Positions 5,640 to 63,914 of a DNA stretch of 64,000 bases are shown in pieces. The position numbers and the translations under genes were made by a program. The notes under the pieces were generated by a model. That model made no database searches, was not told the origin of the DNA, and saw nothing but the letters and a program-made list of their open reading frames with translations. The DNA lies in the NCBI GenBank assembly GCA_964642015.1, contig CAZXLF010000002.1, forward strand, positions 2,717-66,716, given 5' to 3'. Origin of the DNA: an uncultured Planctomycetia bacterium (GTDB taxonomy: Bacteria; Omnitrophota; Gorgyraeia; 2-02-FULL-51-18). Every line of letters begins with the position of its first letter. Positions within the stretch are counted from its first letter, which is position 1.

Positions 5640-5938
5640 TTTTTTACGATCAATGGACGCTTTGACGATCTTGAGAGCGTGCGGCTTTAATTTTTCGCTC
5701 ACATTTTCCCAATTTTTTTCATTCAATTTTTTTCCAGATTTCTGACAAACAAGGGAAGAAGAACATAAGAGTTTTGTTCAAATTTATTTTCCATTTCCAA
5801 TGAAGATGATGGGCGGGAATAGAGTTCCCAGTCTCTGAATGCGTTTTCGCCCGTCAAAAGCGACGCCCGGAAAAGATATTTTTGCTTTGCAGTAAAGCGT
5901 TGGTTTAAAGGAAAGATTGCTGTTTTGCATAAATCCAA
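5640..5938 (-). pseudogene. Deletion scar: the N-terminal 71 aa of a nucleotidyltransferase paralog joined to the C-terminal remnant of a GT2 gene
   Basis: ORF 5723..5938 (MDLCKTAIFPLNQRF...LLPLFVRNLEKN) is ~55% identical to the N-terminus of 10261..11358. The reverse complement of 5590..5700 translates to '..HALKIVKASIDRKKAKNFD', matching the C-terminus 'NVLKIVKASIDRKKSKEL*' of GT2 7235..7954 with a 1-nt frameshift. Confidence 0.6.
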
Positions 5939-11555: not shown

Positions 11556-13016
11556 ATGCAGGATATTTCGGCCCCATCAAATAATGCTTCGGGCGATCTT
11601 ATAAGCGTGATCATTCCTGCTTGGAACAGAGCTGCGTTCCTGGCGGATGCGATCGAGAGCGTGAATCAACAAAGACACGAAGCGCTCGAGATCATTGTCA
11701 TAGACGATGGGTCAACCGACGATACCCGAAAGATAGCGGAACAATTGAAGGGGAATATCCGCTATATTTTGCAACCTCACCGCGGTGTTGCGGCTGCGCG
11801 CAACGCCGGCATAAAAGCCGCGCGCGGAAACATCATCGCGTTTCTCGACACAGATGACCTCTGGCCTCCCTACAAATTGAACATCCAGCTCGATGCGTTG
11901 AAAAATGGCGCGTTTGAAATGGTTCTGGGCGCGTCTCGCATAGTAAAGCTTTGTGAAAATAGGCAAGAGCCGTTTGTGAGAAATAATTTATCGCCTACAT
12001 TTTCATATCATTTATCGAGCGGACTTTATCAACGAAGTGTTTTTGACAAGATCGGCTTGTTTGACGAGCGTTTGACGCCGAGCGATGATGTTGATTGGTT
12101 TCTTCGGGCACAAGAAGCGGAAGTCCGCGCTTTGATTTTAAGTCAGGAAACGGTGATATGGAGACAGCATGACAACAACATCAGCGTGGGCAAATCGATC
12201 AAAGAGCTGAACCTTTTTAAAGTTTTGAAGGGATCTGTCGACCGGCGCTCGAACGTCAAAAAGAATTTCACTGCGTTTCGTACGTTTGAATATCAAAAGC
12301 CGGATCTTATGGAGGAGCCGCTTATAAGTGTTGTCGTGCCCGTTTGCAATGGCGCGCGCTTTCTGGCAATGGCGCTCAGAAGTATTTTTGATCAATTCTA
12401 CCGTAATTTCGAAGTGATCGTTGTTGATGACGGGTCCGATGATAACAGCGCGGAGATCATAGGCTCGTTCCCAAAAATTACCGCGATCCGCCAAAAAAGA
12501 AAAGGTGTCGCAACCGCTCGCAACACCGGCATCGATGCCGCTCGGGGTGAATTCATCGCTTTTTTAGACCAAGACGATCTTTGGATGCCCAGTAAACTGT
12601 GTTTGCAGATAGCCTGCCATTTAAAGAACTCTAACATCGGTTATTCGCTGACAGGTGAAAAAATTTTTATCGAACCCGGTTCGCCGAGCCCGGCGTGGCT
12701 TAGGAGAGAGATGTTCGATGATCATATTGGTCATGTTCTAGGGGCGATCATGATTAAAAAAAATATTTTTGAACGCGTCGGACTTTTTGATCCAGCGTAC
12801 GAGATCGTTAGTGACGCAGATTGGCTTTTCCGCGCAAAGGATGCCGGAATAACCGCTTATCAATTGACAGACACATTACTTTTGAGAAGGATCCACCAGA
12901 ATAATGTTACTCACCGGCAGTCAGAAATGCGCGCTGAGCTTATGAGATCGCTCAAGGCGTCTGTGGACAGGCAAAATGCGGCTAAAGGTCGTCCATTGAA
13001 ACCTTACGCGGGTTGA
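11556..13016 (+). CDS. Two-domain (tandem) family 2 glycosyltransferase
   Basis: Two GT2 signatures: 'LISVIIPAWNRAAFLADAIESV...IIVIDDGSTDDT' near the N-terminus and 'LISVVVPVCNGARFLAMALRSI...VIVVDDGSDDNS' near aa 260. Each is followed by a DxDD block. Confidence 0.7.
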   Translation: MQDISAPSNNASGDLISVIIPAWNRAAFLADAIESVNQQRHEALEIIVIDDGSTDDTRKIAEQLKGNIRYILQPHRGVAAARNAGIKAARGNIIAFLDTDDLWPPYKLNIQLDALKNGAFEMVLGASRIVKLCENRQEPFVRNNLSPTFSYHLSSGLYQRSVFDKIGLFDERLTPSDDVDWFLRAQEAEVRALILSQETVIWRQHDNNISVGKSIKELNLFKVLKGSVDRRSNVKKNFTAFRTFEYQKPDLMEEPLISVVVPVCNGARFLAMALRSIFDQFYRNFEVIVVDDGSDDNSAEIIGSFPKITAIRQKRKGVATARNTGIDAARGEFIAFLDQDDLWMPSKLCLQIACHLKNSNIGYSLTGEKIFIEPGSPSPAWLRREMFDDHIGHVLGAIMIKKNIFERVGLFDPAYEIVSDADWLFRAKDAGITAYQLTDTLLLRRIHQNNVTHRQSEMRAELMRSLKASVDRQNAAKGRPLKPYAG

Positions 13017-22997: not shown

Positions 22998-23076
22998 GGT
23001 GGGCGTAGCTCAGCTTGGTTAGAGCGTCTGACTGTGGCTCAGAAGGTCGCGAGTTCAAATCTCGTCGCCCACCCCA
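22998..23076 (+). tRNA. tRNA-His (GUG) with encoded G-1 and CCA
   Basis: Cloverleaf read by hand. Acceptor gtgggcg/cgcccac, extra 5' G opposite discriminator C, anticodon loop 'ctGTGgc', T-arm gcgagttcaaatctcgt, 3' CCA. Confidence 0.85.
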
Positions 23077-33427: not shown

Positions 33428-33501
33428 GTGCCCATAGCTCAATTGGATAGAGCGCTTCCCTCCGAAGGAAGAGGTTGCTGGTTCAACTCCAGTTGGGCAC
33501 G
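33428..33501 (+). tRNA. tRNA-Arg (CCG); CCA not encoded
   Basis: Acceptor gtgccca/tgggcac, anticodon loop 'ctCCGaa', T-arm gctggttcaactccagt. Confidence 0.75.
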
Positions 33502-37490: not shown

Positions 37491-37564
37491 GCGCCCATAG
37501 CTCAGCCGGATAGAGCGACTGGCTTCGAACCAGTAGGCCGCAGGTTCGAGTCCTGCTGGGCGCA
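37491..37564 (+). tRNA. tRNA-Arg (UCG); CCA not encoded
   Basis: Acceptor gcgccca/tgggcgc, anticodon loop 'ctTCGaa', T-arm gcaggttcgagtcctgc. Confidence 0.75.
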
Positions 37565-37770
37565 TATTTTTTTGTAGGAATTGGCACAGGACTCGAAGAG
37601 AGTGCCAAGTTTATGAACTGCGACGGCTAGGAGCAGTGCCCGCCGCAGAGCGTAGGCGGGTCCGCCAATCAGTTTGGCGGAAATGCGGCGAGTGGCCGAC
37701 CTGAAGCGAACGTAAGTGAGCGGAAGGCGCCGAGTCCTGCTGGGCGCATATTTTTTCGATATAAATCCAG
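37565..37770 (+). repeat. tRNA-trailing element E1. It opens with an inverted copy of the tRNA-Arg T-arm, has a conserved ~100-bp core, and ends with a direct duplicate of the tRNA-Arg 3' end plus T-run.
   Basis: 'caggactcgaagagagtgccaag...gcgagtggccgacctgaagcgaacgtaagtgagcggaaggcgccgagtcctgctgggcgcatatttttt'. The last ~25 nt equal the tRNA 3' end at 37540..37572. Confidence 0.7.
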
Positions 37771-37911
37771 AAATTCATAGATAAAACTAAATAACACTAG
37801 GCATTTCCGATATTTAAGCAGCTTAATTTAAGTTTGTCATAATGACGGTTTTTAGCTAGAATAGCACGTTCATGTAAAGCGGTATTTTTGGATGAGTGCG
37901 GGTCGATTTTT

Positions 37912-37984
<73 letters not shown>

Positions 37985-38122
37985 CGGTTTTTTGGAATAG
38001 CAATAGGGATCGAAGTGAGCCGCACGTTTTTGAGTTGCGATGGTAGGAGCAACGAATGCGGCAAGTGGTCGACCCGAAGCGAAAGCAGAGGGCTCCGATC
38101 CCTGCGCGGCACATAGTTTTTT
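37985..38122 (+). repeat. tRNA-trailing element E2, same family. It starts with an inverted tRNA-Lys T-arm and ends with a diverged duplicate of the tRNA-Lys 3' end.
   Basis: 'agggatcgaagtgagccgcacgtttttgagttgcgatggtaggagcaacgaatgcggcaagtggtcgacccgaagcgaaagcagagggctccgatccctgcgcggcacatagtttttt'. Confidence 0.7.
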
Positions 38123-38140
38123 ATATATGTAAATTTTTCC

Positions 38141-38222
38141 GGGCGGATGGCGAAACTGGCAGACGCGTCAGCCTTAGGAGCTGATGGGGCAACCCTTGGA
38201 GGTTCGAGTCCTCTTCCGCCCA
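38141..38222 (+). tRNA. tRNA-Leu (UAG) with a long variable arm; CCA not encoded
   Basis: Acceptor gggcgga/tccgccc, anticodon loop 'ctTAGga', long variable arm 'tggggcaacccttgg', T-arm ggaggttcgagtcctct. Confidence 0.65.
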
Positions 38223-38268
38223 AGATTTAATGGGTGAGAAAGAGTTAAGGCGACTCTAAAAGATTTCG

Positions 38269-38344
<76 letters not shown>

Positions 38345-51288: not shown

Positions 51289-52308
51289 ATGATTGCAGGC
51301 TATCAAAAAACCGTGAATAAAAAAATCAACTCATTAAATATTTCTATTTTTTTTGGGATCTTTTTTTTATGCGCTACAGTTAGCTACAGCATTGTTTATT
51401 CAAATATTCAGAATTTTTCTTTGTCTCCGGCAATGGGAAATCTGGACACGCAAATTTACCTATCAATGTACAAAGGAGAACCCGTCCAGCGCTATGAAGG
51501 ACGCCGCGTCTTAGTCCCTTTTTTGGCACGGTCCTTGCCTGATTTTCCGCCGTCTTTTTTTGCTAAAGACCACGAATTATCCGGATCATGGACGGCAATA
51601 GTAAAATTCGGAGTCGTTAATTATTTTTTTCTCACAGCCGCGGGAATAGTATTTTTTTACTACTTAAAACAGGCTAAGTTCTCAAATTGGGAATCTGTCG
51701 CCGGATGCCTTTTATTTTATTCGGCAAGGCCTGTGGTCCAGAATGCGGGCCTACCTTTGCCCGATGCGGCTTCGTATTTTTTCTTGGCGATCTGTTTTTA
51801 TTCTATTCAAGTCGAAAATAGATGGCTGCTTTTTGTTGGTTTTTTATTGGGCATTTTTGCGAAAGAATCTGTTTTTTTGGTGATCCCAGCGCTTCTTTTT
51901 TCAGAACATAAGCTTAGATCGAAAATGCTATATGTGCTTATCCCCGGGATTGTAACTTATTCGATTTGTCATTGCGCCATTGTCTTACCCAGACCCAATC
52001 TAACGAATATGCTTTTAGTTTCAGCGCGCTATTTTATTGATACTTTTACTCACGTGAATAGGCTGATAGATCTTTTTTCGTCATTCGGGTTGCTTTGGTT
52101 GCCGGCGTTTTTTTCATTAACATTTCCTGAATTGCCGATAGAGCACCGTCGATGGAAGTGGTTAATTCCATTTATGCTTGCTGTCATTTTTATTTTCAGC
52201 ATGAATCTTGGGCGGATATTATTTGTCGTATTTCCTGTCGTGATCCCGCTGTCATTATTTGGACTGCGCAGGTTTTTGGCAGAAAAAAGTCATGGCTCAA
52301 CGTCATAA
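51289..52308 (+). CDS. Polytopic membrane protein, hypothetical
   Basis: 339 aa with ~9 hydrophobic helices and no recognisable motif. Confidence 0.3.
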   Translation: MIAGYQKTVNKKINSLNISIFFGIFFLCATVSYSIVYSNIQNFSLSPAMGNLDTQIYLSMYKGEPVQRYEGRRVLVPFLARSLPDFPPSFFAKDHELSGSWTAIVKFGVVNYFFLTAAGIVFFYYLKQAKFSNWESVAGCLLFYSARPVVQNAGLPLPDAASYFFLAICFYSIQVENRWLLFVGFLLGIFAKESVFLVIPALLFSEHKLRSKMLYVLIPGIVTYSICHCAIVLPRPNLTNMLLVSARYFIDTFTHVNRLIDLFSSFGLLWLPAFFSLTFPELPIEHRRWKWLIPFMLAVIFIFSMNLGRILFVVFPVVIPLSLFGLRRFLAEKSHGSTS

Positions 52309-52361: not shown

Positions 52362-52658
52362 ATGGATACGAAAGATCTGATCTTTTCAAAAAATCCCAAT
52401 TTTGTCTTCCGCCAGATAGCCGGTGAGTCTTTATTGATCCCGATCCGAAAAAAACTGAATCAAGTGAACAGTCTTTACGTCTTAAATGAGACAGCGGCCG
52501 CTTTTTGGAACCGGTTGGACGGCCAATGCTCCATAAACCGCATTTTGAATGATCTCACGCAGGTATTCGATGTGTCACTCGAGCAACTTGAGCAAGATAC
52601 GTCAGTGTTGGTCCAGGATCTTTTGAGCATCGAGGCTATTCAAGAAGCCATTTCTTAA
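52362..52658 (+). CDS. PqqD-family RiPP recognition element (peptide chaperone)
   Basis: 'FRQIAGESLLIPIRKKLNQVNSLYVLNETAAAFWNRLDGQCSINRILNDLTQVFDVSLEQLEQDTSVLVQDLLSIEAI' is a strong PqqD pattern. Confidence 0.75.
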   Translation: MDTKDLIFSKNPNFVFRQIAGESLLIPIRKKLNQVNSLYVLNETAAAFWNRLDGQCSINRILNDLTQVFDVSLEQLEQDTSVLVQDLLSIEAIQEAIS

Positions 52659-52675
52659 TTCTAAAAAATGGAAGA

Positions 52676-53575
52676 ATGGATAAAATAGATCTAAAAATTC
52701 CCAGCCATTATCCACTTCACTGCCAATGGGAAATCACCTGTCGATGCAATTTGCGCTGTGTGATGTGCTACACCGATTGTTTTAATACGCCGCAAAAGAT
52801 CAAAGAAGAGCTGTCTACGGCGGAGATACTTCGGATCATGGGCGAGCTTGCTGAGGCGGGATGTCTTGAGCTGACGCTCACCGGAGGCGAACCTTTCGCA
52901 AGGCCTGATTTTTTTGAGATCTATGATTACGCGAAAGAAAAAGGCTTTCTTATCATCATATTTTCTAACGGAACCTTGATCACTGAAAAGATCGCCGATC
53001 GCTTTGCTATAAATCCGCCCGAGCGCATCGAAATCAGTTTTCACGGTCTTACCGAACGATCCTTTGAAGCGATCACAAAGGGGGCTGGTTCCTACCATAA
53101 ATGCCTGGAAGCGATCCGTTTGCTTCTGGAGCGCCGCATTCCGCTTGTCTTAAAAAGTGTGGCGATGACGGTCAACAAGGATGAAGTTCTGGCGATCAAG
53201 AAATTCTCTAAAGAGCTGGGGCCTGTGGTTTATCATCTCGGCGAAGAAATACGGATGGCCATCGACGGAGGTGAAGCGCCTTTTCAATATCAGCTTTCCG
53301 AGCAAGAACTTGAAACGATCCACCGGCAGGATCCGGCTATTTGGAAAGAGGCTTGTTGCAAAAAAGAGTCTCCTGTACCTGTTTGTCAAAGCGCGAGGCA
53401 AAATTTTCACATTGATGCCTATGGGCAGCTTCAACGCTGTTCGGGTAACCGCTTGGCGAGCTATGACCTGCGCTCAGGCTCATTCAAAGAAGGTTTTTAT
53501 CGATTTCTTCAAGATTTTCCTTGTCCGGCAAAGTGCAATGAAGCGGTAAAAACGGAAATTTATGGGTTGTTATGA
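52676..53575 (+). CDS. Radical SAM enzyme with a C-terminal Cys-rich SPASM/twitch-like domain (rSAM-1)
   Basis: 'CQWEITCRCNLRCVMCYTD' carries the CX3CX2C motif. The C-terminal Cys run is 'CCKKESPVPVCQSA...RCSGN...CPAKC'. Confidence 0.75.
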   Translation: MDKIDLKIPSHYPLHCQWEITCRCNLRCVMCYTDCFNTPQKIKEELSTAEILRIMGELAEAGCLELTLTGGEPFARPDFFEIYDYAKEKGFLIIIFSNGTLITEKIADRFAINPPERIEISFHGLTERSFEAITKGAGSYHKCLEAIRLLLERRIPLVLKSVAMTVNKDEVLAIKKFSKELGPVVYHLGEEIRMAIDGGEAPFQYQLSEQELETIHRQDPAIWKEACCKKESPVPVCQSARQNFHIDAYGQLQRCSGNRLASYDLRSGSFKEGFYRFLQDFPCPAKCNEAVKTEIYGLL

Positions 53576-54693
53576 TCTTAAATCCGAATAAGATCTCCAA
53601 AATGGAATATGGTGATTTTAGTCTTAACATTCATGAGAAGGCCGGCACAGAATGCGTGATCAAAGCGCAGATGGAACTTACTTACCGCTGCAATCTCCAT
53701 TGCCGTCATTGTTATACCGACCCTTTCAATCGTAAGGAGTATTTCCCTAAAGAAATGGAATTGGCGGAGGTTAAAAGGATTCTTGATGAAATGGCGGCGT
53801 TGGGGATCTTATGGCTTAACTTCACCGGCGGCGAAGCGTTGATGAGAAAGGATTTCTTTGAGATCTATGATTACGCGTGGGCTAAAGGTTTTATTTTGAC
53901 GCTTTATACCAACGGCACCATGATCACTGAATCGGTGATCAACAAATTAAAAGATAAACCGCCGTTTTTTATCGATGTCTCATGTCACTCGATAACCGAA
54001 GAGAGTTTTGATTGGTTTACGCAAGTCAAAGGGTCGTTTCGTCATTTTCTCAAGAGCATGGAACTCTTGAAAGCGAGCGGCTTGCCTTTCCGGATGAAAA
54101 CGATCGGGATGAATTGGAACAAGAAAGAGCTGCCGTACATAAAGGAATATGTCGAATCTTTTGGGATTTCCTTTCATCCAACCACAGCTCTTTATCCAAG
54201 ATTAACCGGCGATCTTGAGCCTTTGAAATTGAGGCTTTCTCCTGAGGAAGCGGTCGATCTGCAGGTTGGATCAGAGGTATTTCAGGAAGATGAATGTCTT
54301 GACTCAGACTCTGTTTACAGCACTATTCCAAACCGACTTTATCGCTGTACTTGCGCGACTAATGCGATCCATATCAACGCATGGGCGGAACTTGGCACCT
54401 GCGGGTTGGAATATGAGGCCAGAGCTTCTCTTCGAGAATATTCTTTAAAGGAGGCTATCTCACAGGTTTTTGAGAAAGTTCGCTCGCTCAGGTTTGAAAC
54501 AAACACACCTTGCCGGGATTGTTCGCTATTCTCATTTTGCAACAAAAAGCCGACCTCTGCGCGTTGGGAATTCAAAGACCCCCAGAGGGCGAATCCTTAT
54601 GAATGTGATGTAGCTTTTTTAAAAGCGTCGCGGTTAACAGGTAAAACACAAATGCACCCGTTAAAAAAAGAGGAGAGTGGCTATGCCGGATAA
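53572..54693 (+). CDS. Radical SAM enzyme with a SPASM-like C-terminal domain (rSAM-2)
   Basis: 'YRCNLHCRHCYTD', and C-terminal 'CTCATNA...GTCG...CRDCSLFSFC'. It is paralogous to rSAM-1 ('FFEIYDYA..KGF...ysNGT.IT'). Confidence 0.75.
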   Translation: MILNPNKISKMEYGDFSLNIHEKAGTECVIKAQMELTYRCNLHCRHCYTDPFNRKEYFPKEMELAEVKRILDEMAALGILWLNFTGGEALMRKDFFEIYDYAWAKGFILTLYTNGTMITESVINKLKDKPPFFIDVSCHSITEESFDWFTQVKGSFRHFLKSMELLKASGLPFRMKTIGMNWNKKELPYIKEYVESFGISFHPTTALYPRLTGDLEPLKLRLSPEEAVDLQVGSEVFQEDECLDSDSVYSTIPNRLYRCTCATNAIHINAWAELGTCGLEYEARASLREYSLKEAISQVFEKVRSLRFETNTPCRDCSLFSFCNKKPTSARWEFKDPQRANPYECDVAFLKASRLTGKTQMHPLKKEESGYAG

Positions 54694-54865
54694 AAAGAAG
54701 TACATTACGCCTCAAATATTTGAGGTCCCGTTAAGGCAAGAACAGGCTGTGCTTACTAGTTGCAATACTAATTGGTCCAATTCTACATCCGGCGGAAATG
54801 GCAAGTGCACCAGCGGTGGATGTAAAAATGGAGGAGGGACCAATAATGCAAACCCTCCATCTTAA
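54683..54865 (+). CDS. Candidate RiPP precursor peptide, 60 aa: MPDKKKYITPQIFEVPLRQEQAVLTSCNTNWSNSTSGGNGKCTSGGCKNGGGTNNANPPS
   Basis: A Shine–Dalgarno 'aggagag' lies 7 nt upstream of the ATG (an alternative GTG is at 54677). The charged/hydrophobic leader is followed by a Gly/Ser/Thr/Asn-rich core with 3 Cys, 1 Trp and 2 Lys. The gene sits between rSAM-2 and the kinase. Confidence 0.7.
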   Translation: MPDKKKYITPQIFEVPLRQEQAVLTSCNTNWSNSTSGGNGKCTSGGCKNGGGTNNANPPS

Positions 54866-54889
54866 ACGCTTATTTCAAGACTAGTCCAA

Positions 54890-55783
54890 ATGCTGATTTC
54901 ATTGGGGATTGGCGGCTATAAAGTTTCAATAGAAGAGCCTAGAGATCGTTTCTGCTTTTTTTGGCCTCTTGCTAGATTTGAACCATTTCTTTCTAATGAA
55001 ACAGCGAATTCAGATATCACTGTTAAAGTCCATATCGTTAAAAAACTAGCAGTGCTTAATAATGAAAATTTGATCTTTGATTCCGGAATAGGTTATTGGA
55101 AACTTTATGATAATGGGCCTAAGGGTTATTTATTTGAAAGTTGCCGTGCAGAGAATGGCCGGCTTTTTTTGCAAGCGGCCATATCGCATGATCTTTCAGA
55201 GGTTGAAGTGACCGTCAAAGAAACCCGCATGAAAGGTAGTGCGCGCGGCGGTTGGGGGCCTGCCACTATTATCAGTCCGCTTCTCGAATTTGTGCTTCAG
55301 GAGAAACTTGCTAGAGATGGCGGCGTGATGCTTCACAGCTCCGCAATATTGGCAGAAAATGAAGTGCTTGTTTTTTTTGGCCCTTCCGGTGCCGGTAAAT
55401 CAACAGCGGCAAATTTTTTTCTGAATAAAGGATATACAGTTCTCAATGATGAGCGCGTGATCATCCGGCGGGAAGGCGACGAGTTTAAAGCATATGGTAC
55501 TCCATGGCCCGGTTCAAGTTTTCTTTATTCGGGTGCACAGGGTCGAATGAGACAGATTTTTAAAATCGGCCATGGGCAGGGAAAGCATATGTTAAATAAA
55601 ATGTCGACCAGAGTAATGATGGCCACTTTATTTCAAGAGGCCTACTTGCCCCATTGGACCGTGATGGGAATGGATAAAACAACTCGTTTTTTTGAGGAAC
55701 TGGCAACTACTTTTGGTTCTCTTGAACTTTTATTTTGTAAATCTTCGGATATCGTTGACTTCCTAACAGAAATTTTTTTTTAA
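54890..55783 (+). CDS. HprK-related P-loop kinase (HPr kinase C-terminal-domain-like)
   Basis: 'VLVFFGPSGAGKSTAANFF' Walker A. Its size and context match 7961..9028. Confidence 0.55.
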   Translation: MLISLGIGGYKVSIEEPRDRFCFFWPLARFEPFLSNETANSDITVKVHIVKKLAVLNNENLIFDSGIGYWKLYDNGPKGYLFESCRAENGRLFLQAAISHDLSEVEVTVKETRMKGSARGGWGPATIISPLLEFVLQEKLARDGGVMLHSSAILAENEVLVFFGPSGAGKSTAANFFLNKGYTVLNDERVIIRREGDEFKAYGTPWPGSSFLYSGAQGRMRQIFKIGHGQGKHMLNKMSTRVMMATLFQEAYLPHWTVMGMDKTTRFFEELATTFGSLELLFCKSSDIVDFLTEIFF

Positions 55784-55796
55784 TGCGAGTCATTTA

Positions 55797-56843
55797 ATGA
55801 AAATTTTAAACGAGAATATTCTCTATCAATCCGTCGCTTTAGGTTCAAAGACCGAAAAGATACCTTCAAAAGTTTTATTTGAGTTAACTTATGGCTGCAA
55901 TTTCCGCTGCGTACATTGTTATAATCCCACACATCAGGCGCGGCCTGAAGAGCTTTCAACAAAAGAAATACATCGAATCTTAAATGAAATTGCAGACTTG
56001 GGTGTTTTATCTATCATTTTTACAGGCGGGGAATTATTTACACGTCCTGATATTTTAGAAATTCTCGAGCATGCCAAGCGATTAGGGCTTTTAATCGACA
56101 TTTTTACCAATGCGAGCCTGTTAACAGACTTGATCGTTAAAAGGCTTGATGAATTAGGGATCCGCGACATGGTCGTTTCGATTTATGGAACGACTCCGTC
56201 CACATTTGAAAAGGTCACTCGTCAAGCGAACTCTTATGAGCGTTTCTTGCGTGGAATCGTGGCGCTTGCAAAATCCTCTTTGAATGTCCACATTCGAATT
56301 CCTCTATTAACTTTGAATAAACATGAAGCCGAGACCGCCAAACTGTTTGTCGAAAGTATGGGATTTCCGTTTCGCTTTTATCTTGAAATTGAGCCTCGCC
56401 AAGATGGTAATCAAGAACCGTTGCAGTACAATCTTAATGCGGGTGAAAAAATGGATATTTTAAAAAGATTACGTCCAGAGGCTTTGGAAAAACCTCCTTT
56501 TGAAGAAAAGCAATTTTCAACGGATTTTATTGAATGCGCTTGCGGTAAGGAACAGTTCGCAGTGACTCCCTACGGAAAAATGAACTTTTGCGTTTCTTTT
56601 CCAACACCGAATTATGACTTGCGCTGCGGTACCGTCAAAGAAGGCTGGCAAATACTTCAGAAATTGGTCCGAGAAGCTAAACCCAATGAAAATTATCATT
56701 GTCCTGGCTGTGACGTCCGGTCGTTTTGCCAGCAAGGTCGTAGCGATGCCTGGCTCGAAACAGGCGACATGAGCGTATGCCTCCCACGTTTTAAAGAAGC
56801 CGCCACTCTTCATAAGACAGCGGTCATTCATAAGACGATCTGA
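55797..56843 (+). CDS. Radical SAM enzyme with a SPASM-like C-terminal domain (rSAM-3)
   Basis: 'YGCNFRCVHCYNP', and C-terminal 'CACGKEQ...CVSF...RCGT...CPGCDVRSFCQ'. Confidence 0.75.
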   Translation: MKILNENILYQSVALGSKTEKIPSKVLFELTYGCNFRCVHCYNPTHQARPEELSTKEIHRILNEIADLGVLSIIFTGGELFTRPDILEILEHAKRLGLLIDIFTNASLLTDLIVKRLDELGIRDMVVSIYGTTPSTFEKVTRQANSYERFLRGIVALAKSSLNVHIRIPLLTLNKHEAETAKLFVESMGFPFRFYLEIEPRQDGNQEPLQYNLNAGEKMDILKRLRPEALEKPPFEEKQFSTDFIECACGKEQFAVTPYGKMNFCVSFPTPNYDLRCGTVKEGWQILQKLVREAKPNENYHCPGCDVRSFCQQGRSDAWLETGDMSVCLPRFKEAATLHKTAVIHKTI

Positions 56844-56955
56844 TGAGGGTCTGTAGCCGGATGGGCTGGTTGATTTTAAGATTGTTTTATTGGTTGCGTT
56901 CAAGCATACCAGCGTTTTTTAATGAGGGCGGTGCCAACTTCGCTGCGCTGTACCC

Positions 56956-57777
56956 ATGATCAATCTGTTACAATCCACGGAATCAGATGGAAGATTTTCC
57001 TTGCAAGAAATAATACAAACAGAGGATTCCGATCTGTCGCTTACTTTTAAGACGGCTGGTTGGAGCATGTTTCCTACGTTAAGGAACAATGACTGCATTG
57101 AGCTTTCGAGAATCCAAGATTACGAAGTAGGAGATCTTGTTGTTTTTCGTCAAAATAACAGGTTAATTTGCCACCGCATCTCAGAGATTCATTTGAATGG
57201 CCGGATACGGACGAGTAGTATCGGAGGTGAACATTTCATTCGGCAAAACGATATTTTGGGCAAAGTCAATTCGATCATTCGAGGCAAAAACCATTTTTGT
57301 CCTTCGAAAACCCAGAAAAAACTACAACTATTCGATCGTTTTTGGATCCATTTGAATATAAATTTAGAAACTATTCAGAATAAGTGTCGTGAATTAATGT
57401 TTGATGTATTTGTTTTGATCAACCGGATCCTGATCTTTAATCAGATCATTTTATTTTTTATGAATAAAAACGTTCACTATTCGATCGGTTCTAAAGCTCA
57501 GGTTGGTCCATTGGATTGCTACCGATTGATTCCTGTTCAGAAAAAGCTCACGCAAGGTTCGATGATTGCGTTAAAGGAAAGTCTAAAAAATGGTAAAGAC
57601 TGTTCAATCCTTGTCGCGCAATTGGCAGGACGTTATGCGGCGACTTTTGAATTTGCTTCAGGCAAAGTATGGCTTCATGACCGTCTAAAAATTACGAATT
57701 TCAAAGCAGAGATTTCACGCTTTGCAGAAAAACTGTGTCACGAATTGAAAGGATATTGTGAACTTAGCGGTGATTGA
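56956..57777 (+). CDS. S24/S26-type serine peptidase domain (signal-peptidase-I/LexA-like) fused to a ~180-aa uncharacterised C-terminal domain; candidate leader peptidase
   Basis: 'TAGWSMFPTLRNNDCIELSRIQDYEVGDLVVF' matches the G-x-SM-x-PTL catalytic-Ser box of S26/S24 peptidases. Confidence 0.5.
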   Translation: MINLLQSTESDGRFSLQEIIQTEDSDLSLTFKTAGWSMFPTLRNNDCIELSRIQDYEVGDLVVFRQNNRLICHRISEIHLNGRIRTSSIGGEHFIRQNDILGKVNSIIRGKNHFCPSKTQKKLQLFDRFWIHLNINLETIQNKCRELMFDVFVLINRILIFNQIILFFMNKNVHYSIGSKAQVGPLDCYRLIPVQKKLTQGSMIALKESLKNGKDCSILVAQLAGRYAATFEFASGKVWLHDRLKITNFKAEISRFAEKLCHELKGYCELSGD

Positions 57778-58558
57778 AGCAACAAATCTAACAAAAACCT
57801 ACTCAGCCGGCACGGGATTATTGGACTGGCTTTTTCGGAATTCATCTATGAAGCCAAAAACAACGGCTCTCAACGGTGTAAATTTACGCATCGAGAAAGG
57901 CGAAATCATCACTTTGCTTGGGCCTAACGGCGCAGGCAAAACGACCCTCATAAAAATTTTAGCCGGTCTTATGACTCCGGACAGTGGTAACGTTAATATT
58001 TGCGGTTTTGACACGGTCAAAGATCTTGCGAAAACTAAACAGTGCGTGAGTCTAGTGCTGGGTGAAGAGAAGAGTTTTTACTGGCGGCTTACAGGACGTC
58101 AAAATCTCGAGTTTTTTGGAATTCTTTACAATCTTTCAAGAGATCGCATCCGCCAAAAGATCAAACAGGCGGCCGAGCTTCTTGACCTCGATCTGGACAA
58201 ACGCTACCAGGAATGTTCGACGGGTATGAAATTTCGTCTGGCGCTGGCGCGTGGATTTTTGAGCGATGCAAAATTGATCCTGATGGATGAACCGACTAGA
58301 AGTTTGGATCCTAATGTAGCAAACCGGCTGAGGGAATTGATCAAAACAATGCGTAACGAGAAAGGATGCGCGTTTTTTTTCGCCACACACGATGTCCATG
58401 AGGCCGAAACGGTCGCCGATAGGATTGTAATCTTGGATCAGGGAAAGATCAGGGCAAGCGGAAGATTGAGCGATCTAAGAAATATTTTAGGGAACAATGA
58501 GGCATCAGTGGAAGATATCTTTCAGCGTGTGACCATCGAGGATCAGTATGTTTTTTAG
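57758..58558 (+). CDS. ABC transporter ATP-binding protein
   Basis: Walker A 'GPNGAGKTT', Q-loop, signature-like 'CSTGMKFRLALARG', Walker B 'ILMDEPT'. Confidence 0.8.
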   Translation: MNLAVIEATNLTKTYSAGTGLLDWLFRNSSMKPKTTALNGVNLRIEKGEIITLLGPNGAGKTTLIKILAGLMTPDSGNVNICGFDTVKDLAKTKQCVSLVLGEEKSFYWRLTGRQNLEFFGILYNLSRDRIRQKIKQAAELLDLDLDKRYQECSTGMKFRLALARGFLSDAKLILMDEPTRSLDPNVANRLRELIKTMRNEKGCAFFFATHDVHEAETVADRIVILDQGKIRASGRLSDLRNILGNNEASVEDIFQRVTIEDQYVF

Positions 58559-59357
58559 AAAATTTTTTGCGATCATATACCGCGATGCGCTCGAAGCATT
58601 AAGTTACAAAACCGCATTTTTTACCGATTTATTAGCGATGACAGCACAGCTCTTGATCTTCTTTTTTGTGGGGCGCATGATCGGGCCGCAGGCAGCCCCG
58701 TTTCTTAGTGAATATGGCGGTGAGTATTTTCCATTCGTGCTTATTGGTATTGCTGTCGCAGGGTTTTGTATGGCCGGTACGAACAGCTTCACTGGTACGA
58801 TCATGAAGGAGCAGGGCGACGGAACGCTTGAGGCCATTTTTGTGACCCCGACCTCTCTTGGTGTATTCATGTTCACGGGATTTATTCGGACATTCGTTTC
58901 AAGCTCCTGTCGGGTATTTGTGTTTTTATTGATGGGGTTGTTATTTTTTAAGATACGTTTACCTATGGTTAACATCCCGGTTTTCTTGCTTCTTCTGGTC
59001 TTGTCGATGGTCGTTTTTGGAAGTTTTGGGCTTTTTTCAGGAGGAGCATTGCTCGTGCTTAAAAGAGGTGATCCTTTCACGCATTTGTTCAATGCCGCTT
59101 CTCGTTTTCTTGCAGGCGTTTATTTTCCTGTTACGCTTCTGCCGCTGTGGCTTCAAAAGGTTTCTTTATGGATGCCGATGACCTATGCGCTTCAGGCGAT
59201 AAGAAAGGCGGTTCTAATCGGTGCCTCTGTTCATGATCTGCAGGCGGAGATGATCACACTGGCGCTTTTTTCGGCCGTTTTATTTTTTTGCGGCATAGCT
59301 TTTTTTAACTGGTGTTTTGAGAAAGCTCGAAAGGAAGGATCCCTTGCTTTCCGCTAA
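58548..59357 (+). CDS. ABC-2 type transporter permease
   Basis: 269 aa with six TM helices. Its start overlaps the ATPase gene end. Confidence 0.65.
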   Translation: MFFRKFFAIIYRDALEALSYKTAFFTDLLAMTAQLLIFFFVGRMIGPQAAPFLSEYGGEYFPFVLIGIAVAGFCMAGTNSFTGTIMKEQGDGTLEAIFVTPTSLGVFMFTGFIRTFVSSSCRVFVFLLMGLLFFKIRLPMVNIPVFLLLLVLSMVVFGSFGLFSGGALLVLKRGDPFTHLFNAASRFLAGVYFPVTLLPLWLQKVSLWMPMTYALQAIRKAVLIGASVHDLQAEMITLALFSAVLFFCGIAFFNWCFEKARKEGSLAFR

Positions 59358-60285
59358 ACCATTTTTGGAAGAAACTTTTTCCACGAACCACTTGGATTAC
59401 GAACGTGTGCTTACCCGAAACCGCAGGAGGCTTGATTTCCTTTTGGAGCTCGAAAGCGATCTAGCGATGGAGAACGTTGATCTTTTACCTTTAAAAGGGA
59501 TGGATCTTTTAATACGCGCTTATCCCTCGCTGGGAATGCGCCCGATGACTGATATTGATCTCCTCATCCATAAAAAAGACATCCCAAAAGTGAAGCGGTT
59601 GCTGGAGCATAAAGATCTGCAATGGTCCGCTGATGAGAACCTTAGCTACTATGACCCCAATTCTTTTATCATTTTAGATATCGTTTGGAATGTCTGGTAC
59701 ATGCCGGACTCGCGGCCGGTTTGGCAGCGTTCATCGCTTTATGCGACAAATGAAGGCAAAGCATTAAAATTGATGCATTCCGAAGATGCTTTGACCTATT
59801 TGATCGCTTATACGATAGCGCATCGCACAGAAATAAATTCTATTTTTTTACAAGACCTCAAATTTTTTTTGGATAAAGAATCCCATAAAATTGATTGGGA
59901 CCACTGGGCTTCAACAGTGAAAAACCTTCACTTAGGCCCAACAGTTTTTTATGGGTTGTCTTACGTCAGAAAAAGTGGGCTCGAAAGCATTCCGGAAGAA
60001 ATAGTTTGTAAACTTCGTCCAACCTCCTATGCGGAAAAAAAATTAAATTTTTATTATCAAAATGTTTTGGAACTAAAAAAAAAGCCGGCGAATTATTTGC
60101 GGACTTGGCTAAGTTATCCGGGATGGAGAGGTAAAATAAAGCTATTACGTATTAAATTTTTGCCTTCCAAATGGCAATTTGAATTGCGTTTTGGACGAAA
60201 AAGCTGGTTAAAATACCTGATTTTTTGCTTCGCCCATCCTTTCTGTGTATTATTCCGTGCCCTCACTGGCCCTTTTATTGAATAA
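59317..60285 (+). CDS. Nucleotidyltransferase family protein, PF14907-like
   Basis: 'VDLLPLKGMDLLIRAYPSLGMRPMTDIDLLIHKKDIPKV' carries the same motif as 4421..5572 and 10261..11358. Confidence 0.55.
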   Translation: MRKLERKDPLLSAKPFLEETFSTNHLDYERVLTRNRRRLDFLLELESDLAMENVDLLPLKGMDLLIRAYPSLGMRPMTDIDLLIHKKDIPKVKRLLEHKDLQWSADENLSYYDPNSFIILDIVWNVWYMPDSRPVWQRSSLYATNEGKALKLMHSEDALTYLIAYTIAHRTEINSIFLQDLKFFLDKESHKIDWDHWASTVKNLHLGPTVFYGLSYVRKSGLESIPEEIVCKLRPTSYAEKKLNFYYQNVLELKKKPANYLRTWLSYPGWRGKIKLLRIKFLPSKWQFELRFGRKSWLKYLIFCFAHPFCVLFRALTGPFIE

Positions 60286-60726: not shown

Positions 60727-62085
60727 ATGCTGATTAGCGCTCGAACGAAGGGGATGATTGTCCCGTTCTTAAACTCATTTTTTATTTTAGGTATTACGAT
60801 AGCTTATGCAGCTGATATGCAATCCGGAATTCAATCCAATAGCGGACAAAATTTTGCTACAATACAGAATGCAGAGAAATATACAATCCAACCGCAGGAT
60901 AAACTTAATATTCAAGTGGCAGGAGAAAATGACTTGTGCGGAGTTTTTGTCGTAGGTCCTCAAGGGGATATTAACTACCCGCTTTTGGGAGCCGTTTATA
61001 TTCAGGGGCTTTCTTTGGGAGAGGTGAAGGATTTTTTGACAGATAGTCTCGGCAAGAAGTATTTGGTGAATCCGCGGGTACAGGTCACATTCTCTGAAAT
61101 GCCTCAACGTTCGATATCAGAAAAATCTTTGCCCGCAAGCGTTCCTACAGTCCCATCTATTCAAGATGTGTTAGCCAAAGTTCAAAATACAAAATCGGAT
61201 AACTCACAAGATTTGAAATCAGAGATCATGAGCATGATAACCCCATCTCCAGCAACCAAAGCAGAGTCTTTGATGAATTATAGCGACGCTGGAGCAACTA
61301 GTTTTGATAGCGATATTATCGACACGGGGGACAAATTGAACATTCAAGTTTATAAAGAGCCTGATCTCTCCGGCGTTTTCAGCGTGAACTCTTCAGGTAA
61401 GATCAATTATCCGTTGCTCGGTGAGGTTTATGCTCAATCGCTTTCGCTAGAAGAACTCAAACAGTTCCTTTATGACAAATTGAATGAAAAATATGTTACA
61501 AATCCTCAAATTGAGATTACGATCACAGAAAGCTCTACTAAATCTGTTTCGATGCTTGGTCAGATCAACAAGCCGGGCAATTATATTTTGACACATCACC
61601 TTACGCTTTTAAAATTGATCTCTCAGAACGGGGGCTTTACTCCTGATGCGTCGACTAAAAATGTCCGTATTGTCAGAACCAATGGTGACGGAAAAAAAGA
61701 GACTTTGGAAGTTGACGTTGATAAGGTAATTCAAGGACTAGCCGATGATGTGATCCTGAGATCAGGGGACATTATATTTGTGGATTTCAGGAGTAAGGAA
61801 GAAGTTAAGAAAGAAGTTGCAAAGAATTATATTACCCTCTTAGGGCAGGTAGCAAAGCCGGGGAATTATTTCTATAGCCCAAAGTTGACGTTGATCCGCC
61901 TGATCGGCGAAGCCGGAGGTTTTTCACCTTCAGCTGCGACTAACAGAATAAAGATCGTACGCAATGGTAAAGATGGTAAGCAGCAGATTTTATTTGTGGA
62001 TGCCGGGCGGATCATGGGCGGCGGTGTGAAGGATCTTGAGGTGGAAGAAGGGGATCTTATTATTGTGCCTGAATCTTATTTTTAA
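60727..62085 (+). CDS. Polysaccharide export protein, Wza-like, with duplicated Poly_export/SLBB modules
   Basis: Signal peptide, then two 'PDY.L.pGD.L.I.V'-like blocks ('YTIQPQDKLNIQVAGENDL', 'IDTGDKLNIQVYKEPDL') and SLBB-like 'GDIIFV'/'GDLIIVPESYF'. Confidence 0.6.
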   Translation: MLISARTKGMIVPFLNSFFILGITIAYAADMQSGIQSNSGQNFATIQNAEKYTIQPQDKLNIQVAGENDLCGVFVVGPQGDINYPLLGAVYIQGLSLGEVKDFLTDSLGKKYLVNPRVQVTFSEMPQRSISEKSLPASVPTVPSIQDVLAKVQNTKSDNSQDLKSEIMSMITPSPATKAESLMNYSDAGATSFDSDIIDTGDKLNIQVYKEPDLSGVFSVNSSGKINYPLLGEVYAQSLSLEELKQFLYDKLNEKYVTNPQIEITITESSTKSVSMLGQINKPGNYILTHHLTLLKLISQNGGFTPDASTKNVRIVRTNGDGKKETLEVDVDKVIQGLADDVILRSGDIIFVDFRSKEEVKKEVAKNYITLLGQVAKPGNYFYSPKLTLIRLIGEAGGFSPSAATNRIKIVRNGKDGKQQILFVDAGRIMGGGVKDLEVEEGDLIIVPESYF

Positions 62086-62093
62086 GAATCGAT

Positions 62094-63914
62094 ATGCCAG
62101 ATAATGATGAATTAGCCAAGAATTCTGCAATCATGATGTCGGATGAGATGCCGTCCAATGATTGGTTGGAGTATTGGTACGTTTTTTTGGCACACGCATG
62201 GATCATCGGAGCTATTACGACGGTTTTTTTTATCGTATCGGCTTTCCATTTTTTTAGTCTGCCTAATCTTTATACGGCTACGACCACGATCTTAGCTTAC
62301 CCGGCCGATAACCCTATCCAGCAATCATCCCATCAAGATGTCCAAACGCCTACGTATGGCCAAGAGGAGGAATATTACGGCACACAATTGGCTATTCTGA
62401 CCGGTATGGAAGTCGAAGAAGAGGCCATCAAAGAGCTTGGAGGCAACGTAGCCGATTATACGGTCAATGCCGAGCATGTGCATGACACAAGGATCCTATC
62501 GTTATCCGTGACCCATCGCGATCCTGAGGTCGCTGCCAAAGTAGCTAATAAGTTCGCCGAGGTCTTTGTGAGGGAAAGTAAGCGTGAAGGCGCATTCATC
62601 GGACAGCAGATTTTAAAATTCCTGCCAGATGATCAGAAAGTCTCAAATCCGAATCCTGTTTTGCAAGCCGGGGGCGCATCGGGAGATAATCTGTCTGGGT
62701 TCAGTAAGCAGGAATTTGCTTCATCGTTAGTGAATGTCTCCAATGACCCTCAGATCCAGCAGCTTAGAAGTGAAAAGCTAGGGATTCTTTCAAAGTTGAC
62801 CGAATTATCACAGCGATACAAATCCGAACATCCGATAATTCTCGATTTAAATCAGCGTCTGGGTATTATTGAAAATGAGATCAAGGCAAGGACCGAAACC
62901 ATATTGAGCAATGTTAAGGCGAACCTTGCTGGCGAGACGAACGTGACGAACATTAAGGTATTGCAGGAAGCCCGCGTTCCGTCAGGCCCCTCTCAGCCCA
63001 ATCGTTTTAAAGGCATTCTTTTATGGACGCTCGGAGGGTTTTTTATCAGTACTTTTTTTGTGTTTCTATTCGAGTTTTCTAACCAAAAGATACGCGATGA
63101 ACATGACGCGACAGCCATGGGTCTGACTTTTTTAGGTTACATCCCCTTGACTAAGGATTTCTTAGTTAGACGCCGAACTAGTGGCTATCATCCAGAAGAT
63201 GTGGATCTGATCAAAGTGCTTAAATCCAATTCTACTTTAGCTGATTCAGTCGCTAATGCGCGCACACATATCCTTTTTTCGATGCCTTATGAAAAGTCGC
63301 GACGCATCATGTTGACAAGCGCTATACCTGGTGAAGGTAAATCAACGCTTGCAGCGCTACTAGCTATTTCGTTGACCACTTTGGGAAGGAATATCTTGTT
63401 GATTGATGCGGATCTAAGAAAGCCTTCTCTGCACAGGTATTTGGGTTTTAGAAATGAAAAAGGATTGACCGATTATCTTGTTGGAACAGCTACGCTGGAT
63501 GAGGTCGTTCAATCTTTGAAAGGTAATTCTTTACAAATGATCACAGCGGGGTCCATATCCCCTAATCCCTCAGAACTATTATCTTCCGAAAGGTTTCGTG
63601 AGCTTTTGGATAAATGCGGAGAACGATTTGATAGGGTCGTCATCGATGTTCCTCCGGTACTGTATATTCCCGATGGGCTTATTGTTGCCAAAGTCGTTCA
63701 TACGGGCATTTTGATCTGTGGAGCCGGTATGGTGCATAAGAGAACTATTCAGCAGGTAAAAGAAAAATTTGATTCAGTAGGTTACTCATTTATCGGCACG
63801 ATCATTAACCGTGCCGATTTTGACAGACAAGCTTATCGCTATAAGTACTATGGTAATTATAAGAGTTATTACAATACCGCGCGTCAGCAACCGATTGTTA
63901 TTCAGCATCGTTGA
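62094..63914 (+). CDS. Polysaccharide co-polymerase / BY-kinase (Wzc/ExoP-like), with a Wzz domain, a Walker ATPase and a Tyr-rich C-terminal tail
   Basis: Two TMs flank a periplasmic domain. Walker A is 'AIPGEGKSTLAALLA', and there is a DxD motif. The C-terminal tail is 'YRYKYYGNYKSYY'. Confidence 0.6.
   Translation: MPDNDELAKNSAIMMSDEMPSNDWLEYWYVFLAHAWIIGAITTVFFIVSAFHFFSLPNLYTATTTILAYPADNPIQQSSHQDVQTPTYGQEEEYYGTQLAILTGMEVEEEAIKELGGNVADYTVNAEHVHDTRILSLSVTHRDPEVAAKVANKFAEVFVRESKREGAFIGQQILKFLPDDQKVSNPNPVLQAGGASGDNLSGFSKQEFASSLVNVSNDPQIQQLRSEKLGILSKLTELSQRYKSEHPIILDLNQRLGIIENEIKARTETILSNVKANLAGETNVTNIKVLQEARVPSGPSQPNRFKGILLWTLGGFFISTFFVFLFEFSNQKIRDEHDATAMGLTFLGYIPLTKDFLVRRRTSGYHPEDVDLIKVLKSNSTLADSVANARTHILFSMPYEKSRRIMLTSAIPGEGKSTLAALLAISLTTLGRNILLIDADLRKPSLHRYLGFRNEKGLTDYLVGTATLDEVVQSLKGNSLQMITAGSISPNPSELLSSERFRELLDKCGERFDRVVIDVPPVLYIPDGLIVAKVVHTGILICGAGMVHKRTIQQVKEKFDSVGYSFIGTIINRADFDRQAYRYKYYGNYKSYYNTARQQPIVIQHR

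Follow-up and report, generated by a model that had tools for sequence, protein, structure and literature searches.

A 64,000-nt stretch of DNA from an uncultured bacterium of the Omnitrophota (contig CAZXLF010000002.1, positions 2,717 to 66,716), hereafter the window, carries a cluster of ten genes at 52362-60285 that is very likely a genuine biosynthetic cluster for a peptide that is made by the ribosome and modified after its translation (RiPP), with a 60-aa open reading frame (ORF) as the precursor gene. The other nine genes encode a PqqD-family RiPP recognition element (RRE), three radical S-adenosylmethionine (SAM) enzymes (rSAM1, rSAM2, and rSAM3), a ScmC-family kinase, an S24/S26-like peptidase fusion, the ATPase and the permease of an ABC transporter, and a nucleotidyltransferase (NTase). 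All coordinates refer to the window, and protein families were called by Pfam and NCBIfam profile searches. The ten ORFs are all on the + strand, and their junctions range from -41 to +24 nt, with the single exception of 112 nt before the peptidase gene. An earlier inspection of the letters of this DNA (the sequence-only reading) had described these genes as a tight co-directional array, and all of its ORFs were confirmed. It had also named two outcomes that would speak against a RiPP cluster, namely a failure of the profile searches to support the enzyme assignments and the occurrence of the enzymes without a conserved small ORF. The profiles upheld the PqqD, radical SAM, S24 fusion, ABC exporter, and PF14907 assignments, and the small ORF is conserved wherever the enzymes occur, so that the RiPP reading passed on both counts. 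The cluster family is widespread and uncharacterised, and was found here mostly in metagenomes of Nitrospiraceae and Omnitrophica type.

The precursor gene (54683..54865, +) encodes the peptide MPDKKKYITPQIFEVPLRQEQAVLTSCNTNWSNSTSGGNGKCTSGGCKNGGGTNNANPPS and was assigned by family conservation and synteny. Its start is best placed at the ATG at 54683 and not at the GTG at 54677; a Shine-Dalgarno sequence read from the sequence, GAGGAG (54670..54675, +), lies 7 nt 5' of this ATG. The peptide has a leader with Y7-x-x-P10-x-I12, three invariant Cys residues (C27, C42, and C47), and an invariant C-terminal Ser (S60), which the sequence-only reading had overlooked. No Pfam or NCBIfam model matches the peptide. 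A spurious small ORF was considered and rejected because the ORF is conserved, is preceded by a Shine-Dalgarno sequence, and has a fixed position. When the ORFs of the window were scanned for the motif YxxPx[ILVM] together with a terminal Ser, the 54683 peptide alone was returned.

A word-index search with a profile of the peptide detected 39 proteins, and an exhaustive profile search detected at least 462 representatives of 50%-identity clusters at E<=1e-3, with 122 at E<=1e-10. The full-size top matches end in Ser in 128 of 136 cases and contain exactly three Cys in 120 of 136. When the database profile matches were pooled with the metagenome loci described below, 239 distinct peptides were obtained, 96% of which have the terminal Ser and 84% exactly three Cys. 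The Tyr, Pro, and Ile/Leu positions of the leader motif YxxPx[I/L] are invariant or nearly so across the family, and the leader Tyr is separated from the first Cys (C1) by exactly 20 residues in 193 of 194 peptides. The consensus ahead of C1 is (E)-Q-A-[I/V]-L-(S)-(A). The distance from C1 to the second Cys is 15-16 residues in 180 of 194 peptides, C1 is directly followed by Ser in 166 of 199 (83%), and the residue right after the third Cys (C3) is Lys or Arg in 192 of 199. The only invariant side chains of the core are the three Cys and the terminal Ser.

Homologues of the kinase with 36-54% identity were found on four unrelated contigs, namely a groundwater contig, a Nitrospiraceae metagenome-assembled genome (MAG), an Omnitrophica MAG, and a 1-Mb contig. 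All four (loci L009, L010, L012, and L014) have the same gene order and a small ORF in the matching slot, so that five syntenic small ORFs occupy the same position. A 339-aa membrane protein encoded directly upstream of the cluster (51289-52308) was rejected as a cluster member, as it is missing from L009. A metagenome scan with the peptide profile yielded 134 relatives, of which 80 loci were kept and annotated with hidden Markov models (HMMs) built from the syntenic genes. The canonical order in these loci is PqqD, rSAM1, rSAM2, precursor (one to three tandem copies), ScmC, rSAM3, NTase, and S24 fusion, with rSAM2 always directly upstream of the precursor. Each canonical gene is present in ~80% of the testable loci, that is, those with enough flanking sequence: PqqD, with which the conserved cluster begins, in 33 of 43, rSAM1 in 38 of 48, rSAM2 in 44 of 55, ScmC in 48 of 58, rSAM3 in 34 of 42, NTase in 33 of 40, and S24 in 26 of 32. 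The order in the window, where the S24 gene precedes the transporter genes and the NTase gene follows them, is a minority arrangement. Since the gene order recurs in dozens of unrelated metagenomic contigs, the clustering is far beyond chance; this is the co-occurrence in other genomes for which the sequence-only reading had proposed to look.

Tandem precursor genes with differing cores were observed in the metagenome loci, two copies in 11 of 76 scorable loci and three copies in one. L022, L023, and L033 are among the examples, and L022 and L023 have an extra precursor-like ORF after rSAM3. The samples of the family include groundwater and microbial mat, and its lineages (Nitrospiraceae, Omnitrophica) are poorly cultured. 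In L014 (17654-18906 and upstream), the cluster lies ~6.7 kb from a large non-ribosomal peptide synthetase (NRPS) gene, with a product of >3,000 aa, and a phosphopantetheinyl transferase gene, and it is followed by an ECF sigma/anti-sigma pair that is also present in L010/L011. In the window itself, the G+C content of the cluster (42.9%) is close to that of the whole stretch (44.0%), which indicates that the cluster is not compositionally foreign. A scan for sigma-70 promoters and terminators gave a result at chance level.

The first gene (52362..52658, +) encodes a stand-alone PqqD-family RRE of 98 aa (Pfam PqqD, E 3e-13), which scored 50.3 bits against the Pfam cut-off of 23.4 and gave sub-threshold NCBIfam matches to PqqD, ScmD, and the lasso PqqD chaperone. 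A PqqD HMM built from the syntenic genes matches BsfB1, the RRE of the Bradymonas bsf lasso peptide cluster, at 57 bits. The leaders are alike as well: the window family has Y..PQ[I/L], and the lasso precursor BsfA has IYKKPQL, of the YxxPxL type defined for lasso leaders (PMC10368454).

The gene that follows the precursor (54890..55783, +) encodes a P-loop protein of 297 aa, assigned as a ScmC-family (PF27840) kinase of HprK/PEPCK fold by precomputed Pfam annotation and by fold. Our local Pfam and NCBIfam searches gave only sub-threshold P-loop matches, including HprK-related kinases A and B and ScmC, and PF27840 is the precomputed public annotation of this exact protein and of 65 of 66 other homologues. 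An AlphaFold model computed from 15 homologues had a pLDDT of 90.8, and a Foldseek search of the PDB with this model returned at E<=0.001 only HPr kinase/phosphorylase and ATP-PEPCK. These results bear out the HprK-related kinase of the sequence-only reading. The identity to HPr kinase/phosphorylase and ATP-PEPCK is 8-15%, Hpr_kinase_C is not matched, and the context of the window kinase is peptide maturation, in contrast to the carbon catabolite control of HPr kinase.

The landmarks of the kinase are H149, the P-loop G164-T172, and D187-E188. The gene sequence of a validated lasso kinase, BsfK, has been printed (PMC10368454), and it aligned with the window kinase at 46% identity (BsfK 145-190, window 146-191, E 2e-9), the catalytic core alone being aligned. 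A ScmC HMM built from the syntenic genes scored BsfK at 39.9 bits. H148, G163, K169, S170, D186, and D187 of BsfK were found to be important by mutagenesis (PMC10368454); they correspond to H149, G164, K170, S171, D187, and E188 of the window kinase, each of which is >=90% conserved in 41 orthologues. BsfK is strongly stimulated by the RRE BsfB1 (PMC10368454). HPr-kinase homologues of lasso clusters phosphorylate the C-terminal Ser of the linear lasso precursor with little other sequence requirement, and this Ser is the target of PadeK, ThcoK, SyanK, and PsmK (PMC8498205, PMC6993621). By analogy, the terminal Ser of the precursor is probably the target of the window kinase.

The NTase gene (59317..60285, +) encodes 322 aa from a TTG at 59317, or 313 aa from the ATG at 59344 that the gene caller favours. 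The protein matches NTP_transf_5 (PF14907) with E 7e-27 and 95 bits against a cut-off of 31.2, and its residues K60-G61, D79-x-D81, and D121 are >=90% conserved in 28 orthologues, in agreement with a metal site of the Pol-beta type (G-[S/G]...DxD). PF14907 is named 'Uncharacterised nucleotidyltransferase', which is the same wording as is used for PsmN of the pseudomycoidin cluster; PsmN adds one or two hexoses onto the terminal phosphoserine and requires its DxD motif (PMC6993621). The sequence-only reading had held that a kinase and a nucleotidyltransferase are features of no characterised RiPP class. This has to be corrected, as the two are a documented tailoring pair of lasso peptides, with Ser phosphorylation followed by the addition of hexose to the phosphate. 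A tblastn search of plasmids with the NTase gave no match.

The S24/S26-like peptidase fusion (56956..57777, +) is a candidate leader peptidase. Its Peptidase_S24 match (E 1e-5) is above the gathering score and confined to the N-terminal third, which indicates a fusion protein; the C-terminal ~170 aa contain one hydrophobic segment (residues 147-170) and gave no Pfam match. The archaeal signal peptidase I model matched below its cut-off (E 2e-6, 27.6 bits against 51.9). The motifs S37-M-x-P-T and C72-H73-R74 are >=90% conserved in 27 orthologues. A Ser/His pair, with His in place of the bacterial catalytic Lys, is the arrangement of signal peptidases of the ER/archaeal type. As judged from these motifs, the enzyme appears to be of the ER/archaeal signal-peptidase type (S26B-like), with Ser37 and His73 as the predicted pair. 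In the Nitrospiraceae loci L010/L011, the NTase and the S24-like protein form one 592-aa product, and the nucleotidyltransferase of lasso clusters is sometimes fused to the B2 leader protease (PMC8498205). The recurrence of an NTase-protease fusion with a different protease is a Rosetta-stone link that supports the S24-like protein as the leader peptidase. Between the peptidase and NTase genes lie those of the DrrA/DrrB-like exporter, a DrrA-like ABC transporter ATPase of 266 aa (57758..58558, +; ABC_tran E 7e-27, drrA subfamily E 2e-59) and an ABC-2 type permease of 269 aa with multiple hydrophobic segments (58548..59357, +; ABC2_membrane E 9e-13).

The three radical SAM enzymes, rSAM1 (52676..53575, +; 299 aa, Radical_SAM E 7e-25), rSAM2 (53572..54693, +; 373 aa, E 1e-22), and rSAM3 (55797..56843, +; 348 aa, E 9e-25), scored 81-89 bits against a cut-off of 29.5, and each has a CxxxCxxC motif whose Cys residues are conserved in 32-40 orthologues. 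In rSAM1, this motif is C24/C28/C31, and the twitch-like tail contains C227, C237, C255, and C283, the last three of which are >=90% conserved in 32 orthologues. In rSAM2 (C40/C44/C47) and rSAM3 (C34/C38/C41), seven conserved C-terminal Cys residues (259, 261, 277, 314, 317, 323, and 345 in rSAM2; 247, 249, 265, 302, 305, 311, and 328 in rSAM3) follow the pattern CxC-x15-C ... CxxCx5C ... C. The SPASM label of these enzymes comes from this Cys pattern and from the SPASM/twitch nature of their nearest relatives. The sequence-only reading had given the first two enzymes SPASM-like tails; by their Cys, rSAM2 and rSAM3 are SPASM-like, and rSAM1, with four tail Cys, is twitch-like. The nearest solved sequences are SkfB, PqqE, CteB (5wgg), and SuiB, the matches covering the core only. 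SkfB is the best solved match for the single sequences of rSAM1 (E 6e-15) and rSAM2 and for the ortholog profiles of rSAM2 and rSAM3; PqqE and SkfB are the nearest solved relatives of rSAM3. Residues 25-337 of rSAM2 align to the mycofactocin radical SAM/SPASM maturase model, below the cut-off. An AF2 model of rSAM3 from an alignment of the three paralogues had a pLDDT of 60.7 with a poorly resolved SPASM region; its nearest folds are SkfB, MoaA, PqqE, BlsE, SuiB, and EpeE, the model being weak C-terminally.

The three enzymes are paralogues with 27-36% mutual identity. Distant ScmC clusters have only one radical SAM enzyme, with which each of the three shares 27-41% identity; these clusters were found in a Schekmanbacteria MAG (L015), a Deltaproteobacteria metagenome contig (L016), and a Pseudomonadota MAG (L017). 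The three tailoring radical SAM enzymes of the sequence-only reading are correct, and they are paralogues of the single enzyme of these clusters. The small peptides of L016 (...KKEYEKPKLRTIELAAEEVLAAGCKLVSGGFAPMAVPCMANGCSGIGS) and L017 (...KRSYETPVLRIIELAAEEVLAVGCKTQAVGTAGFGNGKAVCTFPRQCYGAGS) both have a Tyr-to-C1 spacing of 20, three Cys, and a terminal Ser; in L015, a candidate precursor was looked for and none was found. Since the relatives with one enzyme share the same peptide plan, the ancestral system would have had one radical SAM enzyme. As judged from the sequences, the clade of the window appears to have triplicated the radical SAM gene and lengthened the tail beyond C3 from 5 to 12-17 residues.

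The cluster resembles a hybrid, in which a recognition and tailoring layer like that of phosphorylated lasso peptides works together with a crosslinking layer like that of sactipeptides and ranthipeptides. With the phosphorylated or phosphoglycosylated lasso systems (paeninodin, pseudomycoidin, and the Bradymonas bsf cluster), it has in common a stand-alone PqqD RRE, a kinase of the HprK superfamily whose catalytic residues are the same, a precursor with a terminal Ser, an ABC exporter, and a PF14907-type nucleotidyltransferase that some clusters encode as a fusion with the leader protease. Lasso clusters, however, encode a cyclase and a transglutaminase-like B2 protease, whereas the window has three radical SAM enzymes and an S24/S26-like protease, and its core has three invariant Cys without the ring-forming Asp/Glu logic of lasso peptides. 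Neither an asparagine-synthetase-like lasso cyclase nor a B/B2 protease was matched by Pfam or NCBIfam among the ten proteins, and none was found in the homologous loci; a lasso peptide cluster was rejected on the grounds that both are missing. With sactipeptides and ranthipeptides (SkfB, AlbA, CteB, and PapB), the cluster shares a Cys-containing core and RRE-dependent radical SAM enzymes with predicted auxiliary Fe-S Cys; it differs in having three paralogous maturases and an RRE that is encoded separately from them. In the literature searched, tailoring by a C-terminal Ser, a kinase, and a nucleotidyltransferase was not found reported for sactipeptides or ranthipeptides. A 2025 paper on phosphorylated natural products lists only a handful, with no radical-SAM-modified RiPP among them. 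What is new here is the proposed combination of radical SAM crosslinking with lasso-type tailoring; the component families are already known and are not new biology.

We propose a scheme that, taken as a whole, we narrowly favour. The stand-alone RRE would bind the lasso-like YxxPx[I/L] leader and present the linear precursor to every leader-dependent enzyme, and the constant distance of 20 residues would bring the first Cys into register. Each of the three Cys would then be crosslinked within the peptide by the three radical SAM enzymes, most likely through sactionine- or ranthionine-type thioethers. The ScmC-type kinase would phosphorylate S60, and the NTase would then attach either a hexose to the phosphate, in the manner of PsmN, or a nucleotide. 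The Ser/His signal-peptidase-like enzyme would cut off the leader within the conserved EQA[I/V]L-S-A-C stretch, and in the subtype of the window, the ABC-2 transporter would export the product.

A second set of related genes lies at 2.6-11.4 kb, as the sequence-only reading had noted, and has, amid glycosyltransferase genes, a pair each of PqqD and PF14907 genes and a single HprK-like gene. One PqqD protein (2599-2994, -; 131 aa) has a C-terminal extension, ...KALYKKPTMKRYEQLHEIGVGS up to the stop codon, with a lasso-leader-like YxxPxM and a terminal Ser. The extension aligns weakly with the BsfA leader KLIYKKPQLTYHSTLAAI (39% identity over 18 residues, E 0.11), and the protein may combine an RRE with a minimal substrate of its own; a homologue search with it returned only itself. 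The other PqqD protein (8955-9410, -; 151 aa) has a similar tail motif, KFQTPVMHKYTDM, and a terminal Lys, and its gene shares 74 nt with the beginning of the gene for the HprK-like kinase (7961-9028, -). This kinase is nearer to classical HprK than the ScmC-type protein is, with 30 bits for Hpr_kinase_C against a cut-off of 33.3 and sub-threshold NCBIfam matches to HprK-related kinase A (32.8 bits) and HPr(Ser) kinase/phosphatase (31.5 bits). The region at 2.6-13 kb also contains a Cupin_8/JmjC-like protein (5917-7017) and, as judged by visual inspection of the translations, three single-domain GT2-like ORFs and a two-domain GT2-like ORF (11556-13016); no radical SAM enzyme, lasso cyclase, or separate small precursor was found there. 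Just past the right end of the window, beyond the Wza- and Wzc-like genes described below, the source contig (L001 19055-20894) encodes one more PqqD (98 aa) and one more PF14907 protein, along with an unannotated protein of 246 aa. With this extra set, the genome has at least four PqqD/PF14907 sets within ~65 kb.

Directly 3' of the cluster (60727-63914, +), the window encodes a Wza-like polysaccharide export protein (Poly_export, SLBB) and then a Wzc-like chain-length/tyrosine-kinase protein. The adjacency of such genes to a ScmC cluster, which is seen also with Poly_export in L016, could be a coincidence or a functional link. Six tRNA genes (22999-23073, 33428-33501, and 37491-38341), four of them clustered at 37.5-38.3 kb, are ordinary. 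A locus from a cultured organism, on plasmid pNP243 of Butyrivibrio fibrisolvens (L018; NZ_CP146964.1 178722-195285), carries genes for a ScmC-like protein, a PqqD, an S24/S26 peptidase, a nucleotidyltransferase, and GT2 and PssD/PssE glycosyltransferases, with no radical SAM enzyme, and it may be an experimentally tractable relative.

Several observations weigh against the proposed scheme, and some of them favour other explanations. It is unlikely, in our estimation, that the ScmC-type kinase phosphorylates an internal Ser or Thr, such as the Ser after C1, or is an ATP-dependent partner in leader processing, with the terminal Ser kept for recognition by the NTase or the peptidase. BsfK, the only validated kinase that was compared directly, phosphorylates Ser3 of the core and not the C-terminus (PMC10368454), the window kinase is of the ScmC type and not of the PF07475 type of lasso clusters, and the high frequency of Ser after C1 would suit an internal target. 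The 57-aa peptide of the Butyrivibrio locus, MKKAYVKPEL...CQPSYGRIW, has a KKxYxKPxL leader, five Cys, and a terminal Trp instead of Ser, and the most widely conserved module consists of ScmC, PqqD, the S24 peptidase, and the leader. Nevertheless, the terminal Ser is better conserved than every internal Ser and persists in the distant clusters with one radical SAM enzyme (...GIGS and ...GAGS), four lasso kinases target a C-terminal Ser, and the only known action of the co-occurring PF14907 enzyme is on a terminal phosphoserine. The likeness of the NTase to PsmN and of the kinase to PadeK and PsmK is one of description, not of sequence alignment. The type of crosslink is a guess from homology. 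Pfam SPASM (PF13186) stayed below threshold, with the best score for rSAM3 (E 0.06, 14.1 bits against 21.5) and no match for rSAM1 and rSAM2, and the tail of rSAM1 has no Pfam match at all; all NCBIfam matches to peptide maturases, including StsB, AlbA, and SkfB, are far below the cut-offs, and no sactipeptide or ranthipeptide model was reached. The radical SAM enzymes might instead form C-C or C-O crosslinks, epimerise residues, or convert Cys to formylglycine, or the three Cys might form disulfides or bind a metal. Among the structural neighbours are an epimerase (EpeE), two enzymes that form C-C crosslinks (PqqE and SuiB), and the non-peptide enzymes MoaA, BlsE, and DesII, which would agree with such chemistry, as would the twitch-like tail of rSAM1 with only four Cys. 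Moreover, three-Cys peptides occur also in the relatives that have just one radical SAM enzyme, so that three paralogues are unnecessary there for three Cys and the number of enzymes does not simply track that of Cys. One enzyme per Cys was rejected as a firm rule for this reason, and the two additional paralogues may have a role other than crosslinking one Cys each. We still give non-thioether chemistry a low probability, as the Cys are the sole invariant core side chains besides the terminal Ser and the Cys-thioether synthase SkfB is the best solved match in sequence and profile searches. In addition, sactipeptides and ranthipeptides have as their signature a Cys-rich core that occurs together with radical SAM/SPASM enzymes and an RRE.

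The place of the product and of the cluster among known systems was considered in the same way. A C-terminal phosphoserine could serve as a handle for glycosylation, giving a peptide-primed or peptide-capped surface glycoconjugate in place of a free secreted peptide. The Wza- and Wzc-like genes directly downstream of the cluster, Poly_export beside the ScmC cluster of L016, the sugar-modifying enzymes that flank L017, the glycosyltransferases of the Butyrivibrio locus, the three GT2 genes interleaved with the second PqqD/kinase/NTase set, and the hexose that PsmN-dependent modification places on the phosphate would all fit this idea. It is speculative and improbable: the window encodes an ABC exporter of its own, sigma/anti-sigma genes flank L010 and L014, the latter being flanked by the NRPS gene as well, and most of the 80 loci have no such neighbours, although neither glycosyltransferases nor export proteins were modelled in their annotation. 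The ABC exporter for its part is adjacent only in loci of the window, L009, and L012/L013 types and is not conserved family-wide. In about 15 of the 80 loci, the precursor gene is an orphan whose neighbours are unrelated, which is a further point against the scheme; presumably these peptides are extra precursors whose modifying enzymes are encoded in trans elsewhere in the genome. The orphans L052, L058, L080, L084, L094, and L095 keep intact family features, and Pfam identified an epoxide hydrolase, an AraC-type regulator, an HD-domain protein, a LuxR-type response regulator, and an adhesin among the neighbours of L052 and L080. The Pfam family ScmC is named after Haft's SynChlorMet (SCM) cassette (TIGR04248-04251; PF27840), in which a PqqD homologue is likewise combined with an HprK-like P-loop protein and with PqqE-like radical SAM/SPASM proteins. 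The window cluster could accordingly be a plain member of this already defined cassette, with nothing new, and the PF27840 assignment and the weak ScmC, ScmD, ScmE, and ScmF matches inside one cluster would point that way. The scores, however, were 18.6 bits against a cut-off of 125 for ScmC, 24.2 against 100 for ScmD, 92.4 against 400 for ScmE, and 76.7 against 400 for ScmF; since all four are 4- to 7-fold below cut-off, the cluster is not an NCBIfam SCM equivalog. The SCM cassette has two radical SAM enzymes and the window three, and the window adds the nucleotidyltransferase, the S24 peptidase, the ABC exporter, and the clear precursor family identified here, which no NCBIfam or Pfam model matches. 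To our knowledge, the SCM model description names no identified precursor. In the literature searched, no paper was found that mentions SynChlorMet, describes ScmC with radical SAM or PqqD, or describes this cluster type. Plain membership in the cassette is thus quite unlikely, and the claim of the sequence-only reading that the gene composition matches no named class holds in so far as all scores are sub-threshold, but not for the P-loop protein, which is Pfam ScmC, nor in view of the weak matches to the other Scm models.

With the radical SAM crosslinking and terminal-Ser tailoring scheme as the preferred reading, it is possible, and we suggest it tentatively, that the family represents a new RiPP class of radical-SAM-crosslinked three-Cys peptides with a C-terminal phospho-(glycosyl/nucleotidyl)-Ser. 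The leader, RRE, kinase, NTase, and protease might then be a portable module for the decoration of a C-terminal serine, which is plugged into lasso cyclases, radical SAM enzymes, and glycosyltransferase loci such as that at 2.6-11.4 kb. If the scheme is true, it would provide a concrete precursor and testable chemistry for a cluster of the SCM type, and phosphorylation or phospho-decoration of a terminal Ser would extend beyond lasso peptides, phosphorylation being rare in RiPPs. With three paralogous radical SAM enzymes that share a single small core as substrate, the cluster would offer a natural system for the study of how site or reaction specificity diverges. The family of at least 462 clusters in poorly cultured lineages represents untapped chemistry and is a strong lead for genome mining.

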